Virus record (IMG/VR): IMGVR_UViG_3300006118_000005 | Coordinates: 1-34,947 of that record | Origin: a virus | Lineage: Duplodnaviria > Caudoviricetes | DNA length: 34,947 nucleotides | Reading direction: 5' to 3' (one strand) | Part shown: one piece after another, positions 18,989-31,839 of the stretch | Position numbering within the stretch: position 1 is the stretch's first letter | How the letters are laid out: each line of letters begins with the position of its first letter | The notes under the pieces: generated by a model | Databases searched by the model: none | Told to the model about the DNA's origin: nothing | What the model saw: only the letters and a program-made list of their open reading frames with translations | Made by a program: the position numbers and the translations under genes

Positions 18989-20741
18989 CGTAAACTCCTA
19001 TGCGTTTTAAGTAATCAGAAACGTTTCTGCCCACTGCAATTTGCTCAGGCGTTTTGTCTTCTTGTGCGCGTGAGACTGATTTAGATATTTTGTTGGCAAT
19101 CAGCCTTGGTTGTACTTGCTCTGCGTATGCGGCGGCGCCAAGAGCAAGGGCTATGACCCTGTCATCCTTGTTGCGACCAGAGGCTTCAATGCTGGAACCC
19201 TCGCGAGTAATGGTTTTCATCTCCTCAATGGTATCCATGTCGTAGATGTCTAGCATACTGCGCTCAAACAAGTCCTTGGTATAGGTGAGCATACGTTCTT
19301 TTGTGGCTTGTGTGGTTGCCCAACCAATAGAGCCAGAGAGTCCACTCATGTTGTCGTTGCGTCTCCAAATGTAGTTTGACATTGAGCCGTACACATCCAT
19401 GAGTTGCTTGCCCACAGTACCCGCCATAGCGGCGGCTTGACGGCGTAAGTTCTTGAGTTCATTCAAGACCGCCTGACCCGGACCATTGATTTCAAGGTTT
19501 AGCGTTGAGTTTTTGTAGGCACCGGCTAAGTGAGCAATAACCCAAGCAAATTGGTAGGTGTTCATTTCACTCGTCGCGAAAACGGCAACTTGTTCCATGC
19601 CATCAGAGTAGCAACGACATACTTGAATACAGAATCGGTCTGCCCAGTCTGAGCTACCGTAGGCGGGGTCTGCGCCAATAACGTAGTAGGCGGTGTCGAT
19701 GGGTTCTTCAAAGACTTTGAGCGTGGCGAGTTTTTCTTTGGATTTGACGACGTCGGTGTCTTGGAAGTTGGCGCCAAAGACGTATCGGTAATAGTCGGGT
19801 TGGATTTTCTTGGCAATTTTCGCGGCATCGGTACACCTCGCATTAGAAAAGAAAGATTGTCCTGACATGACAAATGCGTAGTCTTCCGTTGGCGGAAACT
19901 CTTGGTACATCAGGGATTCATCCTTGATGCCCTCAGCCAGTTTCCATCTCCACCAAGCCATTTGCCTTGAGTTGATTTCAAAGTCGTAGAGTTTTTTAAT
20001 ATCGCGTACCCACTCTTTTTCCTCAGGGGTGAGTTTGCCGTCCCAGTAGGTTTTGTACACATCGGTGTCTGCCCCAGCAGAGTAGAACTCATTGCGCCAC
20101 CAACCGCAAAATATGGCACGTTGTGTCCTTGCCCGTTTGGCAGTGACGTACATATCGTGAAACATATTGAATCCCCGCGCTGTGGATTCAAAGATGTAGA
20201 GGCGATTGGGGTTGGATTCAGCGAGAGAAGCTAGGAGAGATGCCAAGCCTTCTTCGTCACCCCAAGAACTTGTTTCAGTGCCGTGAAGGTAGGTAATTGC
20301 CTTACCGCGACCCAAGCTACCTTTTGCTCGGAGTCCAGCGACTTGATAAAAGAGGCGACTTCTGTTCTTGAGAGAAAGCTGGTTACGGTTGTGCGCGACA
20401 AGTGGAATTTTGTACTCTTTAGGCAAACCGTCCATATACATGGCAAGGGTGGAGCGAAACATATCTCGGTTTTCTTCGGTATCGGTTGTGAGGGTACCTT
20501 GGAGTCCGTTGTTGATGAAGTGCCAGTAGAGGTCGAGGGCAAGGGAGATAGTAGTGATTCCAAGTTGACGTCCTTTTAAGATAACAAAGAAATGGACGTC
20601 TTCTTCAAGCCCTTTGGCTATTTCGCCCATGGTGTAGGTTTGGGTACCGAGGAGGTGGTCCATGTTCTTTAGACCTTGCTCTTTGGTTTCTATTTTGAGC
20701 TGGGCGCAAAATGCGTAAAACTGTTTGAGATTGAATTTCAT
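18969..20741 (-). CDS. terL: Terminase large subunit
   Basis: Walker A-like ILKGRQLGITT, variant Walker B LHGTE, coupling motif ESTA, nuclease motifs IGADPAYG and DDRV. Start at the ATG overlapping the upstream TGA. Confidence 0.92.
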   Translation of the reverse strand: MKFNLKQFYAFCAQLKIETKEQGLKNMDHLLGTQTYTMGEIAKGLEEDVHFFVILKGRQLGITTISLALDLYWHFINNGLQGTLTTDTEENRDMFRSTLAMYMDGLPKEYKIPLVAHNRNQLSLKNRSRLFYQVAGLRAKGSLGRGKAITYLHGTETSSWGDEEGLASLLASLAESNPNRLYIFESTARGFNMFHDMYVTAKRARTQRAIFCGWWRNEFYSAGADTDVYKTYWDGKLTPEEKEWVRDIKKLYDFEINSRQMAWWRWKLAEGIKDESLMYQEFPPTEDYAFVMSGQSFFSNARCTDAAKIAKKIQPDYYRYVFGANFQDTDVVKSKEKLATLKVFEEPIDTAYYVIGADPAYGSSDWADRFCIQVCRCYSDGMEQVAVFATSEMNTYQFAWVIAHLAGAYKNSTLNLEINGPGQAVLNELKNLRRQAAAMAGTVGKQLMDVYGSMSNYIWRRNDNMSGLSGSIGWATTQATKERMLTYTKDLFERSMLDIYDMDTIEEMKTITREGSSIEASGRNKDDRVIALALGAAAYAEQVQPRLIANKISKSVSRAQEDKTPEQIAVGRNVSDYLKRIGVYGGPTTP

Positions 20742-21466
20742 TTTTCCCAAGGCATGATTGCCCCGTATTTGTCTTTCATGAATTGATGACCAACATCAAA
20801 AAATTCTTTGGTGACCGATAGTTCATTGCCGCCAAGGCGAAAGTTAAAGGTGTGTTCTTTGGTTGAACAGAAATTGGGAAAGAGCTGTTTGGCAACGGCG
20901 TAAAACTCTCGGTCAACGCCCCATTTGTTTTGACCAAGAACGATGGCTATTTTCTTTAAGCACTCGGTCTTCATGCCCCACATACACCAGTCCACAAAGT
21001 TGGTGTTGTCGTTATCAAGCAAATTCCAAGGCTTGTGGAGGTCGCCAAGCGCCTCACAGCGGTCGTTGAATAGGTAGTTGCCGTCCTTGTCGTGGATGCT
21101 TCTAAGGGAGTACGCCCAGTCAACGCCGAGGTCTATTTTGTGCATGATGGATTCAACATGGTCTGCATCAAACCAGTCGTCATCATTGCAAAAGAAAGTG
21201 ACGTCTTCGTTGATAAGCTGGGGCGCGGCGGCAAGCCAACGACGTCCGTCTAGTCCGTTGCCTCCAATGTATCCGTCCCAGTAGCAAAGGTGGGTGGAGT
21301 TGTTGGCGTACTTATCAAACATTTTGCGGTAGGAGACGTAGGGCACTACGGCGTCCACAAGAATGTAATGCTCGACAGGAAATGTTTGCGTCTGAATGGA
21401 TTTAACGCAGTCTTCCAGTTCTGCTCGGTTTGTGGTCACGGTCACGACCGCGGCTGTCATAGTCAT
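20738..21466 (-). CDS. Glycosyltransferase family 2
   Basis: VVTVTTNRAELEDCVKSIQTQT...EHYILVD, plus the DxD-type motif FCNDDDWF. Confidence 0.85.
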   Translation of the reverse strand: MTMTAAVVTVTTNRAELEDCVKSIQTQTFPVEHYILVDAVVPYVSYRKMFDKYANNSTHLCYWDGYIGGNGLDGRRWLAAAPQLINEDVTFFCNDDDWFDADHVESIMHKIDLGVDWAYSLRSIHDKDGNYLFNDRCEALGDLHKPWNLLDNDNTNFVDWCMWGMKTECLKKIAIVLGQNKWGVDREFYAVAKQLFPNFCSTKEHTFNFRLGGNELSVTKEFFDVGHQFMKDKYGAIMPWEK

Positions 21467-22175: not shown

Positions 22176-22880
22176 ATGATTCGCACTTATAACGAATATC
22201 ATCTTGGCGACCAGTTAATCCATCTGAATTTTCTCCGCCGATTGGAGATACCGGCTACGCATTACTGCAAGGCGGAGTATCACAAGCAATTACAGCCCTT
22301 AGTCTTGGGCACAGACATTGTCCTTATGGACCTACCAGCCAAGCCAGAGGACGCCGTAAACGCTTGGATAGGGGCGGATAACTACTTCTACAACCATCCC
22401 ATGAAAGAGCACTGGGTTGAGTTCCATGTGGATTGGTTTAACCATCTTTGTGAACAAATGATGATTGATACTTTCACCATAGACAAGCATGACCTACTCT
22501 TTGACTACCCAGCCCTTATGGCAATCCAAGCCGAGCAGTACGACTATCTCATCATCAACAGCCCTCCCAAGAGCAATCAGCTACCCAGTTTTAACCAAGA
22601 TGCCTTTAAAAGAATGGCTCAGGAACTCCTTGATCAAGGACATACGGTAATCAGCACATATCCCTTGCAAATATGCCCAAATACGCTTGAAAAAGGCTTG
22701 GATGTGACCCAAATCGGCGTACTTTCCAAGGCAGTCAAACACATCATAGCCGTGGATACAGGTCCTCTATGGACCACCTATAACGTCCACAATAAGGATA
22801 AAGTGCTCAGTAGAACCGTTTATCACAAGTTTATGAAGACCGGTATGCTCAATACAGTCTATCGCCAAGAACTAATCTAG
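22176..22880 (+). CDS. GT-B fold glycosyltransferase (GT9 / heptosyltransferase-like)
   Basis: HLGDQLIHLNFLRRL and IAVDTGPLW match GT9 signature segments. Confidence 0.7.
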   Translation: MIRTYNEYHLGDQLIHLNFLRRLEIPATHYCKAEYHKQLQPLVLGTDIVLMDLPAKPEDAVNAWIGADNYFYNHPMKEHWVEFHVDWFNHLCEQMMIDTFTIDKHDLLFDYPALMAIQAEQYDYLIINSPPKSNQLPSFNQDAFKRMAQELLDQGHTVISTYPLQICPNTLEKGLDVTQIGVLSKAVKHIIAVDTGPLWTTYNVHNKDKVLSRTVYHKFMKTGMLNTVYRQELI

Positions 22881-23059: not shown

Positions 23060-23345
23060 ACCCCTATTAAATATTTGAGAGAATAGAATGTAATACTATT
23101 TTCTAGTTATCGTTTTATTTCAATTACTAATAATTCAATTAGCAAATATTCTTTTAATCAAATATTTTCTTATAAGTAATAATTGTATTAAACAATAATT
23201 ATATACGAATATTTGGTAATAGGAATATTCTATCAATAATTAAATATTCATACAAATATTTATTGAATATTGATATTGACATAATCATTCTAATCTATAT
23301 AATTCAACTATTGATTAAATAATTAGTCAATGCAATTATCCATAA
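23060..23345. other. Very AT-rich non-coding region with eight AATATT copies
   Basis: Composition seen directly. AATATT at 23070, 23145, 23161, 23208, 23224, 23243, 23255 and 23266. Confidence 0.8.
23276..23303 (+). promoter_or_regulatory. Consensus sigma70 early promoter for ardC
   Basis: TTGACA-N16-TATAAT with AT-rich upstream sequence. Confidence 0.85.
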
Positions 23346-23363: not shown

Positions 23364-24221
23364 ATGTCAAACAAAATTTATGAGTCAGTTACACAATCAA
23401 TCATTGAGCAATTAGAAAAAGGCGCTACACCATGGATAAAGCCGTGGAAGGCGGACAGCACAGCGGATAAGAATTTGATTAGCCAAAAACCATATCAGGG
23501 CGTCAATCGTTTAATCCTAGGATTGTCATCCATGGTTAAGGGATACGATACGCCAGTATGGGCATCATTCAAACAATTTGAGAGTTTAGGCGCCAATGTT
23601 CGTAAAGACGAAAAAGGGACAGCTATCGTTTGGTTTAGCCCTATTACCAAAGAAAATAAAGAGACGGGCGAAGTTGAATCGTTTAATGCTCTCAAAACTT
23701 ATTATGTGTTCAATGTTGCACAATGCGACGGGATAGAGATAACCAAATCAACGCCAGTTGATAAACCATTTAATCCAATTGATGCCGCCGAGCAAAGGAT
23801 TGTCAAAACTGGCGCCGTAATATCGCATGGCGGCGATAGTGCATTTTTTGCGCCGAGTGTTGATCGTATCCAAATGCCCCATAAATCGGCGTTTGACAAT
23901 GAATCAAGCTACTATGCCACTGTATTTCACGAATTAACGCACTGGACCGGGGCTAAACACCGATTAGATCGTACATTTGGCAAACGATTTGGGGACCCGG
24001 CTTATGCTTTTGAGGAATTAGTGGCGGAAATGGGCGCCGCGTTCTTATGTCAGGATTACCGGATTCAGGGCGAATTACGCCATGCCGGTTATATTCAAAA
24101 TTGGCTCAAAGCTATGCGCGACGATAGCAAGGCGATATTTAAGGCCGCCGCCCTTGCACAAAAAGCCGCCGATTATCTGAATCAATTAGACGTGACGGCG
24201 TCGATTGAATTAGTAGCATAA
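23364..24221 (+). CDS. ardC: ArdC-family antirestriction protein (ssDNA-binding + zincin-like domain)
   Basis: IIEQLEKGATPWIKPW, YQGVNRLIL, VRKDEKG, HELTHWTG and YAFEELVAEMGAAFL. Confidence 0.93.
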   Translation: MSNKIYESVTQSIIEQLEKGATPWIKPWKADSTADKNLISQKPYQGVNRLILGLSSMVKGYDTPVWASFKQFESLGANVRKDEKGTAIVWFSPITKENKETGEVESFNALKTYYVFNVAQCDGIEITKSTPVDKPFNPIDAAEQRIVKTGAVISHGGDSAFFAPSVDRIQMPHKSAFDNESSYYATVFHELTHWTGAKHRLDRTFGKRFGDPAYAFEELVAEMGAAFLCQDYRIQGELRHAGYIQNWLKAMRDDSKAIFKAAALAQKAADYLNQLDVTASIELVA

Positions 24222-27415: not shown

Positions 27416-28318
27416 ATGGCTAACGACAGAGCAGACTTTGAACCAGAGTTTCGCAATCAATACTGGTGGGCAACCGATTCCGCTGAGGCGGCTAAGGGCA
27501 ACGCCAATGATGTGGTGCTAACGAAAATAGGCGCTAAACCGCCGAAGGACCTAAGCCACATTGAGGCTGTGCAAATGGGTCATGTCATGCAACCTATCAT
27601 CGGACGGCTTGCACAAGACCGGCTCAAGGTAGAGCTGAAGGACGCTGACTACATGATGACACATCCTAAAGAATCATGGATGCGTTCACACTTTGACTTT
27701 ATATCCGCTGACGGAAAAATGCTTGTTGAGGCTAAGAACTACTCGGCTATGACCAGAAACAAGTACGACGCAGAAAGCGGCATCATACCGGCGTTCAACA
27801 TGGCGCAACTCATTCATCAATCGGCTTGCCACAACATCGAGCATCTGGTCCTAGCTGTGCTCTTTGGTGGTCAAGAGTTCCAAGTGTTTCAGTTCCACAT
27901 CACTGAGCAAATGCGCGACCAGTTGGTCAAGGACATGGCTAAGTTTTGGGCGGCTGTACAAACCAAGACACCACTGGACCCCGAGACAACAGAGCACACC
28001 AAGCTCATGTACAAGGCGGACGCCGGAACAGTGACAGTGGCTAATGCTCAAGTCGTACAAATTGCTGAGACGCTAAAGAACATCAAGGCGCAGATCAAGC
28101 AAATGGAGGAGGATGAGGACAAGCTACAAACCGCACTACAAAGCTATATGCAAAACCATGCGGAGTTGGTAGGCGTTGACGGCTCGGTCCTAGCGACATG
28201 GCGGTCTAGCAAGGCATCCAAGCGCTTTAATGCTGAAGTCTTTAAGTCCGCTATGCCCGACATTTACGAGCAGTTTGTATTTGAAACACCCGGCTCTAGG
28301 AGGTTTTTACTCAAATGA
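27416..28318 (+). CDS. YqaJ / lambda-exonuclease family nuclease
   Basis: AVQMGHVMQPII, RSHFDF...LVEAKN (PD-(D/E)xK) and QLIHQ. Close to the annealase gene. Confidence 0.85.
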   Translation: MANDRADFEPEFRNQYWWATDSAEAAKGNANDVVLTKIGAKPPKDLSHIEAVQMGHVMQPIIGRLAQDRLKVELKDADYMMTHPKESWMRSHFDFISADGKMLVEAKNYSAMTRNKYDAESGIIPAFNMAQLIHQSACHNIEHLVLAVLFGGQEFQVFQFHITEQMRDQLVKDMAKFWAAVQTKTPLDPETTEHTKLMYKADAGTVTVANAQVVQIAETLKNIKAQIKQMEEDEDKLQTALQSYMQNHAELVGVDGSVLATWRSSKASKRFNAEVFKSAMPDIYEQFVFETPGSRRFLLK

Positions 28319-28506
28319 AAGCATTTCCAACATCAATGAACGAAGGATACCCACAAATTATTCAAGGCGGCATGGACTTGCGAGACTGGTTTGCAGGGCA
28401 AGTATTACCTACGTTGATAGGCGGAGCGGGAATGGAAGACATTACAAAAGCCGCTTATAAATGGGCAGACGCAATGATGAAAGCAAGGGAGAATAAAGAT
28501 GAGTAA
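28315..28506 (+). CDS. Conserved small phage protein
   Basis: GMDLRDWFAGQ...AYKWADAMMKAR motif. Confidence 0.8.
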   Translation: MKAFPTSMNEGYPQIIQGGMDLRDWFAGQVLPTLIGGAGMEDITKAAYKWADAMMKARENKDE

Positions 28507-29401
28507 CCTAACACTTAGACAAGGCTTTGCGCCCCAAACCATGAATGAGGCAATTCAGTTCTCTGAGATGCTCTCCAAGTCTCAGATGGTCCCAAAACAA
28601 TATCAGAACAAACCTGAGGATATTTTGGTGGCTGTGCAGTGGGGCTATGAAATTGGATTAGCACCCATGCAAGCACTCCAAAACATTAGCGTCATCAACG
28701 GGCGCCCCAGTGTTTATGGAGACGCCGCCATGGCTTTGGTCCAGTCTAGCCCAGCTTGCGAGGACATCGAGGAGTTCATGGAGGCTGAGGGCACACCGAA
28801 CCCGGTGGCTGTCTGTATTGCTAAGAGAAAAGGACGCAAACCCGTCACTGCTAAATTCTCTGTGGAAGACGCCAAACGCGCTAATCTGTGGGGCAAACAA
28901 GGTCCTTGGACCCAGTATCCTAAACGTATGCTTCAGATGAGGGCTAGAGGCTTTGCTTTGCGCGACGCTTTCCCAGACGTCCTCAAGGGGCTAATTACTG
29001 CTGAGGAGGCACAAGACTACCCTAGCGACACTGTCGAGGCTCCTAAGCCCATTCCAAGGGCTGTGGAAGTGCTTGAGCAGTTTGAGGACGAACCGCCCGA
29101 GGGATACATTTCTCTCTTTGTGCCAAACAACCCCGACCCCTATTCATGGCACCCGGACACCGCTTCATGGATTAAGGCTTATCAACATCTTGTCCACAAA
29201 ATCAATTCTTTTCAAAAGCTCACCGCTGAGGAAAAACAAGAAAAGATTTGGGGGCTAGAGAAAGCTAACGCCGAAGTGGTTGAAGGCTTTGATAGTTTTG
29301 ACCGAGTCAAGCTCAAAGCGGCTATTGCTGAAGTTGGGGTTGACCCGTTAAAAAAGCCGCCAGTGTCTCAAGACGAGGTACCCAGCGAGAGCGAATCTTG
29401 A
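28499..29401 (+). CDS. recT: RecT-like single-strand annealing protein (0-frame product)
   Basis: GYEIGLAPMQALQNISVINGRP, AKRANLW...GPWTQYPKRML..RARGFALRDAFPD. Confidence 0.8.
   Translation: MSNLTLRQGFAPQTMNEAIQFSEMLSKSQMVPKQYQNKPEDILVAVQWGYEIGLAPMQALQNISVINGRPSVYGDAAMALVQSSPACEDIEEFMEAEGTPNPVAVCIAKRKGRKPVTAKFSVEDAKRANLWGKQGPWTQYPKRMLQMRARGFALRDAFPDVLKGLITAEEAQDYPSDTVEAPKPIPRAVEVLEQFEDEPPEGYISLFVPNNPDPYSWHPDTASWIKAYQHLVHKINSFQKLTAEEKQEKIWGLEKANAEVVEGFDSFDRVKLKAAIAEVGVDPLKKPPVSQDEVPSESES
29336..29381 (+). promoter_or_regulatory. Programmed -1 ribosomal frameshift signal (dnaX-type)
   Basis: SD-like GGGGT (29336-40), A_AAA_AAG in the RecT frame (29350-56), 6-nt spacer, then hairpin GTGTCTC-aagac-GAGGTAC (29363-81). 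Confidence 0.7.
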
Positions 29402-29589
29402 GGCACCTACAAAGTGGAAAAACAATCACACCACTTGAAGCACTCGAACAATTTGGTTGTTTCCGGCTTGCATCCCATATCGAAGTTTATCGAAAAGCAG
29501 GACACAGAATCTTTACAAAAATGGTTAGTGACGGCGGCAAAGAGTACGCCGAATACAAATATTTATCAGGAGAAACCGCGAATGGCTAG
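29356..29589 (+). CDS. Winged-helix/HTH domain, probably expressed as the -1 frameshift extension of RecT
   Basis: TQRERILRHLQSGKTITPLEALEQFGCFRLASHI. The frame is open from 29344 with no start codon before a mid-helix TTG at 29398. Confidence 0.7.
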   Translation, partial: AASVSRRGTQRERILRHLQSGKTITPLEALEQFGCFRLASHIEVYRKAGHRIFTKMVSDGGKEYAEYKYLSGETANG

Positions 29590-29842
29590 TAACTATCAAC
29601 CCGTAGAAAGTAAGGGCATACTCACGCCGAGCGCCTACTTGCAGAAACAAAACCCTAAGGCTCCCGACTTTAAGGGCAAAATCATGCACAAAGGCGAAGT
29701 GATTAACATATCCGCTTGGTGGCGTAAATCCCAGTACGGCGAGTTCTTAACGCTTGCTGTGGACACTTATCAACCGCCTGTCAACACACAGACTTATCCC
29801 CGGGAAGTAACGCCCAGAGGGGATGAGGACGTACCCTTTTGA
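29582..29842 (+). CDS. Putative single-stranded DNA-binding protein
   Basis: Start MASNYQ at 29582 (AGGAG SD). KAPDFKG...ISAW and the acidic C-terminal DEDVPF tail. Confidence 0.7.
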   Translation: MASNYQPVESKGILTPSAYLQKQNPKAPDFKGKIMHKGEVINISAWWRKSQYGEFLTLAVDTYQPPVNTQTYPREVTPRGDEDVPF

Positions 29843-29848
29843 TGCCCG

Positions 29849-29924
29849 GTCCCCGTAGTTCAATGGATGAGAATACGATGCTACGAACGTCGAGATGGAG
29901 GTTCGATTCCTCCCGGGGGCGCCA
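29849..29924 (+). tRNA. tRNA-Arg(ACG)
   Basis: 76-nt cloverleaf: acceptor GTCCCCG/CGGGGGC, anticodon arm CGATG-ctACGaa-CGTCG, T-arm GGAGG-ttcgatt-CCTCC, encoded CCA. Confidence 0.93.
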
Positions 29925-30302
29925 ATGAAGGCTATTCTGGTATTGCCGCTGAGTCCGAGCACCAACACCTATTACCGCAAATACAACAATATTATGGTGA
30001 TAGGTGCTGAAGGCAGAGCATTTAGGAAGGCTGTGCAAGAGTACGTTTTAGTCAACAAGATACCTAAGTTCAGGGACAGAAAATTGAAAATAACAATGGT
30101 GATTAGTCCAAGGGACAAGAGAAAGATTGACATTGATAACCGCATCAAAGCAGTTCTCGATTCCTTGCAAAAGGCTGGTGTATTCGATGATGATTTCCAT
30201 GTGGACCATTTAGAAATGATTCGCGGCGAAGTCATCAAAGGAGGACAGCTACTGGTCACGATAGAGGAAATACCCCCCATCAACTCAGAGGTGAGTCCCT
30301 AA
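29925..30302 (+). CDS. rusA: RusA-family Holliday junction resolvase
   Basis: LPLSPSTNTYY...PRDKRKIDIDNRIKAVLDSL..AGVFDDD. Confidence 0.9.
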   Translation: MKAILVLPLSPSTNTYYRKYNNIMVIGAEGRAFRKAVQEYVLVNKIPKFRDRKLKITMVISPRDKRKIDIDNRIKAVLDSLQKAGVFDDDFHVDHLEMIRGEVIKGGQLLVTIEEIPPINSEVSP

Positions 30303-30370: not shown

Positions 30371-31153
30371 ATGTCAAAAGATAAAGTCGTATCCATCAAA
30401 TCCGCAGAGAAACCGCCCGTTCATCTGTACATTGCAACACCTATGTACGGCGGTATGTGCGCAGGATTTTATACACAGTCTATCCTCAACCTACAAAACG
30501 TTTTTAAGAACACCGGCTGGACACTGAGCTTCTCATTCATGTTCAATGAGTCTTTGATACCAAGGGCTAGAAACGCGCTTGTACAAGGCTTTTTGAAAAG
30601 CGGCGCAACTCACATGATGTTTATTGACGCTGACATCAAATTTGAAGCAAGTCACATTATCCACATGGTTGAGGCAGACAAGGAGATTCTTTGCGGCATC
30701 TATCCCAAGAAGGAAATCAACTGGGATTCCGCTAAGAAAGCTATGGACGCCGGAGTACCCAACGACCAACTCAAACACTTTACTGGTTCATTTGTGGTTA
30801 ATCTTGTGGATTACTCCAACGAAGTCACTGTGCCTGTCAATAAGCCTGTGGAAATCTGGAACGGCGGTACCGGCTTCATGATGATTAAGCGCGAAGTGTT
30901 TGACAACCTTGCAGACAAAGTGCCTGAGTACACCAACAACATTATGGACCTATCCGGCACACTGAAGGCAGATACCATCAAAGAATACTTTGCAACCAGT
31001 ATTGAGGAAGAAACAAAGATACTGCTCTCAGAGGATTATCACTTTTGCAAACTGGCTAGAAAACACGGCATGAAGGTTTGGGCGGCTCCTTGGGCGCAAC
31101 TCGGACACATCGGTACTTATCTCTTTGAAGGTCAACTCACACCATCGCCATGA
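30371..31153 (+). CDS. GT-A fold glycosyltransferase-like protein
   Basis: IATPMYGG, NESLIPRARN, FIDADI (DxD), GTGFMMIKR and SEDYHFC. Confidence 0.75.
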   Translation: MSKDKVVSIKSAEKPPVHLYIATPMYGGMCAGFYTQSILNLQNVFKNTGWTLSFSFMFNESLIPRARNALVQGFLKSGATHMMFIDADIKFEASHIIHMVEADKEILCGIYPKKEINWDSAKKAMDAGVPNDQLKHFTGSFVVNLVDYSNEVTVPVNKPVEIWNGGTGFMMIKREVFDNLADKVPEYTNNIMDLSGTLKADTIKEYFATSIEEETKILLSEDYHFCKLARKHGMKVWAAPWAQLGHIGTYLFEGQLTPSP

Positions 31154-31839
31154 TTAACCACTTTACTGTTGTAGAGTCTATTTACGGGAAAATCATAGTT
31201 AATCGCAACTGTGATTTTCAAATAGATGCTCTTGCTAAAACCGGCAAAACTCATATAGAACATGAGTTGTATAACATTTTTCAATTTGTGGATAATTTGC
31301 CGCCAGATGCTATTGTCATAGACGCCGGTGCAAACATAGGGTTGTTCAGCATCCCTGTTGCACAAAGACGCAAAGACATTACGCTGATTGCTTTTGAACC
31401 TCAAAGAATTATTTATAACGCTTTATGCGGCTCTGTTGCGCTGAATGACATCAACAATATTTTTGTACACAACAAAGCAATTACAGAGCTTGTGAGCTAT
31501 GTTGTCTTGCCGTCTGTTGATTACAGCATGAAGATGGATTACGGCATGGTTAGAGTTCAACCGGGTCTTACTGACGAAAATATGTATATGCGCAACTTTA
31601 TGGTTGACGGCGTATCTATTGATTCTTTGAAGTTACCCAGATGCGACTTTATCAAGATTGACGTAGAAGGCTTTGAGATACAAGCCATCAAGGGCGCTAG
31701 AAAGACCATAGAGACGTTTAAGCCAATACTATGGGTTGAGTACCATATTGTTGGCATGGACGCCATTTGTAAAGCCGTTGGTGAAGGTTATACCTTTATT
31801 ATGGCGGACCCACTTAATATGGTCTGTGTTCCGTCTTGA
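31150..31839 (+). CDS. FkbM-family methyltransferase
   Basis: VIDAGANIGLFS, AFEPQ and FIKIDVEGFE. Confidence 0.92.
   Translation: MINHFTVVESIYGKIIVNRNCDFQIDALAKTGKTHIEHELYNIFQFVDNLPPDAIVIDAGANIGLFSIPVAQRRKDITLIAFEPQRIIYNALCGSVALNDINNIFVHNKAITELVSYVVLPSVDYSMKMDYGMVRVQPGLTDENMYMRNFMVDGVSIDSLKLPRCDFIKIDVEGFEIQAIKGARKTIETFKPILWVEYHIVGMDAICKAVGEGYTFIMADPLNMVCVPS

Follow-up and report, generated by a model that had tools for sequence, protein, structure and literature searches.

Comparative evidence for a programmed -1 frameshift that would join a winged helix to a RecT-like annealase in a family of phages

Comparison of related phage sequences points to a programmed -1 ribosomal frameshift in the gene for a RecT-like annealase, and we consider this mechanism, at the heptamer A_AAA_AAG of the genome described here, to be highly probable. 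The frameshift is conserved and very probably functional in the phage. Ribosomes that slipped back one base at the heptamer would make a 363-aa fusion of annealase and winged helix (286 residues before the shift and 77 after it) in addition to the 300-aa annealase that is predicted when no shift occurs. The window, by which we mean the whole stretch of DNA that was analysed (34,947 nt; Duplodnaviria, Caudoviricetes; IMG/VR record IMGVR_UViG_3300006118_000005), is a complete circular phage genome on the basis of a 120-nt terminal repeat. It encodes terminase, portal, capsid and endolysin, and its sequence is present in freshwater metagenome runs.

The annealase gene lies in a module with the order YqaJ-like exonuclease, small ORF, RecT-like annealase, HTH_39 frame, SSB-like gene, tRNA-Arg and RusA. 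The features on which the analysis draws are the following, in window coordinates:

27416..28318, + strand: YqaJ/RecE-like exonuclease, the upstream partner gene (PF09588, E 3.5e-7; phrog_434, E 2e-45)
28499..29401, + strand: RecT/Redbeta-family annealase, short form, 300 aa (PF03837, E 1.5e-7; phrog_561, E 3.7e-56)
29336..29340, + strand: Shine-Dalgarno (SD)-like 5' stimulator GGGGT, with a 9-nt spacer to the heptamer (GGAGT in the close relative L006)
29341..29343, + strand: TGA stop of the -1 frame, the 5' bound of the shift site, read from the sequence
29344..29589, + strand: -1 frame encoding a linker and then, from 29377, an HTH_39 winged helix that no start codon precedes (PF14090, E 5.4e-10)
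29350..29356, + strand: slippery heptamer A_AAA_AAG of the V_VVA_AAR class, RecT-frame codons TTA AAA AAG
29363..29406, + strand: candidate 3' stimulator beginning 6 nt past the heptamer, either an 11-bp stem (29363-73/29396-406) or an alternative 7-bp hairpin (29363-81)
29398..29401, + strand: TTGA overlap of an in-frame TTG (29398-400) with the RecT stop, the first possible helix-frame start and the basis of a re-initiation alternative
29579..29842, + strand: small SSB-like gene, preceded by an SD of its own and overlapping the last bases of the helix frame (phrog_18154, E 4.6e-6)
29925..30302, + strand: RusA Holliday junction resolvase, in the exo-recT module (PF05866, E 1.1e-10)

Much of this arrangement had been proposed in a first-pass annotation made from the letters alone. 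Its heptamer in the RecT frame is correct in phase and in all coordinates, and the GGGGT that it placed 9 nt upstream is there. Reading the sequence likewise confirmed that the -1 frame opens at 29344, with no ATG, GTG or TTG from that point to the first helix; in a Pfam search, position 1 of the HTH_39 profile (PF14090) falls at 29380. The lengths given for the two predicted products, RecT and RecT-winged helix, are right, and comparison with relatives strongly supports the pair. The TTG at 29398-400 that overlaps the RecT stop is absent from that annotation.

For that comparison, viral, metagenome and genome collections were searched for loci with RecT and helix queries. We obtained 278 loci in which the helix adjoins RecT, some of them one contig fetched more than once, and these yielded 113 distinct junctions. 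Because the junctions are akin to one another (the RecTs linked to the helix form 27 clusters at 75% identity), the counts that we give are not counts of independent events. All 113 junctions carry an in-phase V_VVA_AAR heptamer (92 C_CCA_AAG, 14 C_CCA_AAA and 7 A_AAA_AAG), which answers favourably the check, suggested in the earlier annotation, of whether heptamer and phase are conserved in homologous RecT-HTH pairs. The helix is in the -1 frame in 112 of the 113, that is, in every one of the 112 that are intact. The exception is L394, which scores in frame 0; we rejected it as an in-frame fusion, its frame being broken throughout RecT, helix and ssb in an indel-ridden contig. Searches that began from RecT, with no selection for the helix, agree, giving 15 helix-adjacent loci among 80 and the same result in 25 of 25 distinct junctions. 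The distance from heptamer to helix takes seven values in intact loci, from 21 to 39 nt, all of them multiples of three, and the tree of the cassette (slip site and helix with the adjoining RecT end) implies at least five heptamer changes, every one inside the V_VVA_AAR class.

The motif belongs to the junction with the helix. It is found in 0 of 91 distinct RecT tails without a helix, a control from which loci ending less than 250 nt past the RecT stop were excluded, and in-phase V_VVA_AAR occurs 3 times in 12,364 other RecT codons. By chance the overlap motif would be expected in 0.28 of 47 representatives; it was seen in all 47. Elsewhere, Pro-Lys pairs are encoded by C_CCA_AAR in 3 of 58 cases, so the heptamer is not accounted for by constraint on the protein. 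Upstream of it, at 5-16 nt, an SD-like motif is present in 108 of the 113 junctions, as against 251 of 1343 background windows (19%), and an SD-like 5-mer stands at exactly 9 nt in 73 of 88; the motif is missing in the other five junctions. The L092-L094 clade is without an upstream SD-like motif and has a strong stem 6 nt past the heptamer (z -2.8); stops confine the shift there to 25 nt. At least two tandem X_XXY_YYZ heptamers precede the helix in L138, L140, L154 and L167.

Stop codons narrow the site of the shift further. In 8 of 88 junctions a -1 stop stands immediately next to the heptamer, and in none does one follow it; the zero-frame stop can lie as little as 18 nt past the heptamer. 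Together these pin the shift to the heptamer. We also looked for a conserved start belonging to the homologous HTH genes themselves, an observation that the earlier annotation had named as contrary to its proposal, and saw none. No ATG lies between heptamer and helix in any of the 113 junctions; seven have an in-frame GTG, and 106 have no ATG, GTG or TTG at all. HTH_39 sequences located away from RecT, by comparison, have their own ATG in 34 of 36 cases, the remaining two being one with GTG/TTG and one junction with its RecT cut off.

Two explanations would dispense with ribosomal frameshifting, and we think both very improbable. In one, the helix is a separate small protein whose translation is coupled to that of RecT where TTGA (or ATGA) spans the RecT stop. 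The window has such a TTGA, and across 88 junctions the codon at this position, seven codons into the helix, is TTG in 44, and an ATGA overlap four codons in is found in 6 of the 88; yet the codon is CTG in 35, CTA in 6 and something else in 3, so that half the junctions lack the TTG. A start there would lose G1, Q3, R4 and I7, each conserved in no fewer than 18 of 20 representatives, along with half of helix 1 (residues 3-12). Because such starts remove conserved residues and part of a helix, re-initiation is unlikely as the main route, and may give a minor truncated product. RecT moreover stops ahead of the helix in several clades, and coupling leaves the heptamer, the SD and the open linker unexplained. 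The other explanation, to which we give even less credence, is transcriptional slippage on the run of A residues, or a fusion gene that is broken or mis-assembled. There are indeed six consecutive A in the window, and L394 does score in frame 0, but a long homopolymer is not kept: A6 occurs in 7 of the 113 junctions, while 106 have C_CCA_AAR with only three or four A. Against an artefact stand the state of L394, purifying selection on the helix beyond the overlap (dN/dS 0.17, 34 disjoint pairs), and independent contigs. Among the four runs examined of 24 listed, the A6 run is found without indel in contigs from DNA runs X5 and X6 and in one low-depth contig from RNA run X20; since these other contigs have no indel there, the heptamer is not an assembly error. 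The RNA runs gave low-depth contigs only.

Natural in-frame fusions of RecT and HTH, another check that had been suggested, yielded no clean case. There were 0 among 83 proteins with this C-terminal domain, and the best 150 of 9,483 helix hits likewise contained no such fusion; the searches scored about 8,000 candidates each, which makes the absence weak. Two candidates were set aside: P0001 is a doubtful singleton fragment whose C-terminal domain changes frame earlier, and P0058 is a multi-helix protein without RecT.

The weak part of the signal is its 3' structure. The earlier annotation had described a three-part layout of the dnaX/IS3 kind, of which the heptamer and the SD stand and the 3' hairpin is not family-wide. 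The proposed 7-bp hairpin, 6 nt downstream at 29363-81, does form in a 44-nt fold, but shuffled sequences do equally well (z -0.17) and it is not kept across clades. When more sequence is included in the fold, its 5' arm pairs with 29396-29406 to give a stem of 11 bp (z -1.74). Over nine close relatives the 11-bp stem is paired in 98 of 99 cells (99%), with one double change, a result that 152 of 500 shuffles match; the 7-bp stem is paired in 87% of cells, and neither stem has significant covariation. RNAalifold returned no consensus structure over 19 representatives. Downstream folds with z below -1 were obtained for 14 of 32 segments, as against 5 of 32 controls, and in the largest clade a conserved GTCCC could pair with the first helix codons (5 bp, 79% paired, no covariation). 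Of the testable features of a dnaX/IS3 -1 frameshift, then, the heptamer, the SD and the overlapping coding frame are all present, and 3' structure is the exception.

The annealase that carries this signal consists of an annealing domain (about aa 1-174), a flexible linker, a helical C-terminal domain (about aa 201-284) and a 14-aa acidic tail. Its RecT identity is given by a PF03837 match above cut-off. The N-terminal model matches Redbeta 7ujl (Foldseek E 4e-5; Z 8.8, rmsd 3.3, 134 aligned) and also LiRecT 7ub2, a fold from which we would expect the window's RecT to anneal ssDNA and to form oligomers. For the C-terminal domain there was no significant Pfam or PDB sequence match. Three annealase subfamilies carry the cassette, and that of the window shares only 25-32% identity with the other two. 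Along the cassette DNA tree there are 10 changes of annealase class, no fewer than with shuffled labels (bootstrap support is not fully settled), and the mixed pairs L128/L130 and L136/L148 are well supported. In these two pairs, and in L195/L385 and L012/L160/L162, a near-identical C-terminal domain, slip site and helix stand behind differing annealase subfamilies. The annealing domain has thus been exchanged, by intragenic domain swapping in RecT, and the C-terminal domain, slip site and helix have not been separated.

The model of the helix (pLDDT 88) has three helices and a beta wing. Its fold is nearest to uncharacterised phage HTH proteins and, weakly, to Stf76, the best solved match (E 0.018); the solved matches are winged-helix DNA binders, all with E above 0.01. 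DNA binding by the helix is thus predicted at the level of the family. Exactly one HTH_39 match per genome was found in the window and in 18 of 18 virus records of the frameshift type. Among related phages without the frameshift, only 4 of 19 had a match, in a first look that can miss divergent copies, and for this reason the helix is dispensable in relatives. We considered whether the stand-alone helix and the frameshift form exclude one another, and dropped the idea, as 15 of the 19 non-frameshift records showed no HTH_39. Stand-alone HTH_39 was present in the fetched flank of 39 of 125 unlinked loci. In MW202722, a freshwater podovirus (L398:1605-4116), a stand-alone HTH gene lies upstream of exonuclease and recT. 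Rhizobium phage RHEph01 gp19 (L402:2590-3261) is a 223-aa protein with an HTH_39-like match at its C-terminus, which indicates that other phage proteins, too, can bear HTH_39 as an in-frame extension.

An exonuclease homolog is upstream of RecT in 71 of the 75 linked loci with enough flank. Translational coupling of the helix frame to ssb was rejected: the offset between stop and start ranges between -20 and +13, and an SD of its own precedes the downstream gene. SD-like motifs also precede the start of the gene downstream of the helix in relatives. Between the ssb-like gene and rusA, tRNA-Arg(ACG) occupies 29849-29924, and the rusA ATG follows it directly. Elsewhere in the genome, a perfect sigma-70 promoter (23276-23303) precedes a gene for an ArdC-like anti-restriction protein that has a zincin domain (23364-24221), and a terminator-like stem (24230-47) comes after this gene. 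Several glycosyltransferase-like genes and an FkbM methyltransferase gene (20738-21466, 22176-22880 and 30371-31839) possibly serve surface or virion modification. We recognised no initiator, helicase, primase or polymerase gene in the subset of ORFs scanned. The RecT-slip-helix cassette was not found in cultured or annotated phages, no helix of the window's clade was found in cellular genomes, and none of the 9 cellular RecT loci inspected, of 12, has an adjacent helix. As to the host, there is no more than a hint, from phage-like contigs in Polynucleobacter and Burkholderiales bins.

What the two products would do together is a further question, and the reading that we favour, as probable though by a good deal less secure than the frameshift itself, is that they form a mixed filament in which a fraction of the subunits bears a duplex-binding helix. 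From known rules, tandem tRNA slippage on V_VVA_AAR, aided by the upstream SD, would produce both forms, and the rate of the shift would set their ratio. Both share the oligomerising N-terminal domain and are therefore likely to mix in one filament, so that the mixed oligomers with some dsDNA-binding subunits proposed earlier are a reasonable inference. Redbeta forms filaments and binds no preformed dsDNA, according to the part of PMC9772228 consulted; the added helix on some subunits, predicted to grip double-stranded DNA, would therefore hold the annealase at duplex DNA beside resected ends or recombination intermediates. A more specific form of this idea, which we offer tentatively and think unlikely as it stands, is that the long form is a site-targeted annealase. 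The helix would recognise a phage sequence, the origin or a genome end, targets that the earlier annotation had named as possible, and nucleate a filament there, with a fraction set by the frameshift starting recombination-dependent replication; the targeting cassette would be a module portable between unrelated annealase domains. A search of the genome for an origin or iterons that the helix might target gave neither a convincing repeat family nor a sharp skew switch.

Two other functions are compatible with a real frameshift. The long form could be a regulator whose helix binds a promoter or operator of the phage; the annealase part would then act as a scaffold for oligomers or as a sensor of ssDNA, and the shift would keep the long form scarce. 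This we regard as possible and rather doubtful. Stf76, the best solved fold match, binds its own promoter according to the source consulted in part, and stand-alone HTH_39 follows cI/cro or antirepressor genes in two cultured phages; but other stand-alone copies lie close to exo-recT in certain relatives and, in cultured phages, to ssb, initiator or rusA genes, a 286-aa annealase would be of little gain to a regulator, and an operator search was without success. Alternatively, the shift could swap protein-contact tails, exchanging the acidic tail of the short form for a winged helix that binds a partner (exonuclease, SSB or the host replisome) and not DNA, which we judge improbable. Acidic tails that often end in Phe, as in these short forms, resemble those of SSB proteins. 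The 74 distinct short-form tails have a mean net charge of -2.4 and 32 end in Phe, and ATT is the Ile codon behind this Phe in 29 of 55 cases, as compared with 2 ATT at each of two other conserved Ile positions. The Redbeta C-terminal domain, moreover, binds Exo and SSB, as stated in the portion of PMC11611040 consulted. The window's own tail (29357-29401), however, ends in Ser, tails of 6-7 aa occur, the overlapping Ile-Leu codons in part dictate the Phe or Ser, and kinship inflates the count. The mixed filament with duplex-binding subunits is the reading that we prefer.

The mechanism itself is already known from dnaX and IS3. The IS3 family joins a DNA-binding domain to a recombination protein by frameshift; in these elements the DNA-binding part lies at the N-terminus of every product, and shifting appends the catalytic part. 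The annealase resembles IS911 and IS3 in its SD and V_VVA_AAR signal and in its longer fusion product, and differs in that the annealase would always be made and the DNA-binding part added, and in that we found no conserved pseudoknot or stem. In E. coli, C_CC.A_AA.G was the most efficient of the heptamers tested (54% with the IS3 pseudoknot) and V_VV.A_AA.R heptamers are among the best, as given in passages of PMC4066793. With dnaX (tau/gamma) the window shares A_AAA_AAG, the upstream SD-like stimulator and two forms of a DNA-metabolism protein differing by a C-terminal extension, as the dnaX case is described in passages of PMC5009743. To call the shift dnaX-type, as had been done, is right for the class of mechanism and less apt otherwise: the family mostly uses C_CCA_AAG and has no conserved hairpin, the gene is a different one and phage-encoded, and the shifted product is longer, whereas in E. 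coli dnaX it is shorter (PMC4066793, in part). A review consulted in part does mention reversed dnaX candidates in which tau comes from the shift.

Among phage proteins, lambda gpG/gpGT and the Ig-like coat and tail extensions of T3, A2 and A118 are alike in that a fraction of the subunits of an oligomer gains a C-terminal domain by a -1 shift (passages of PMC5009743). Those are virion-assembly genes; ours is an early recombination gene to which a winged helix is added. The pairing of an exonuclease with a Redbeta-fold annealase that has a separate helical C-terminal domain is shared with lambda Exo/Redbeta, RecET and LiRecT, for which a 2023 review (PMC11611040) contains none of the words 'frameshift', 'helix-turn-helix' and 'isoform'. 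The helix itself is like other HTH_39 phage proteins (PF14090, phrog_4973) in sequence and fold, and unlike them in having no ATG, HTH_39 normally being a stand-alone gene of 60-110 aa with its own.

The earlier annotation knew of no described example, and the literature searched, which left some supplements and subscription journals outside, likewise holds no description of an annealase frameshift that adds a DNA-binding domain. The word 'RecT' is absent from the main texts of PMC3711429 and PMC10885494, from two supplements of PMC3711429, and from the part of the PMC5009743 text examined. What has not been found in that literature is thus the use of the known mechanism in a recombination annealase. 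Such a frameshift escapes notice in annotated genomes, since the helix is split or truncated by gene callers.

Nearly every phage frameshift described so far concerns a virion-assembly gene; the RecT junction, if the frameshift is true, is a widespread case in a recombination gene. More than 100 natural signals with heptamer swaps additionally form a series in which the rules of frameshifting can be tested. The finding further suggests that some subunits of annealases, the proteins that do the work in recombineering, can bear a duplex-binding domain, a point of relevance to how annealases find their substrates.
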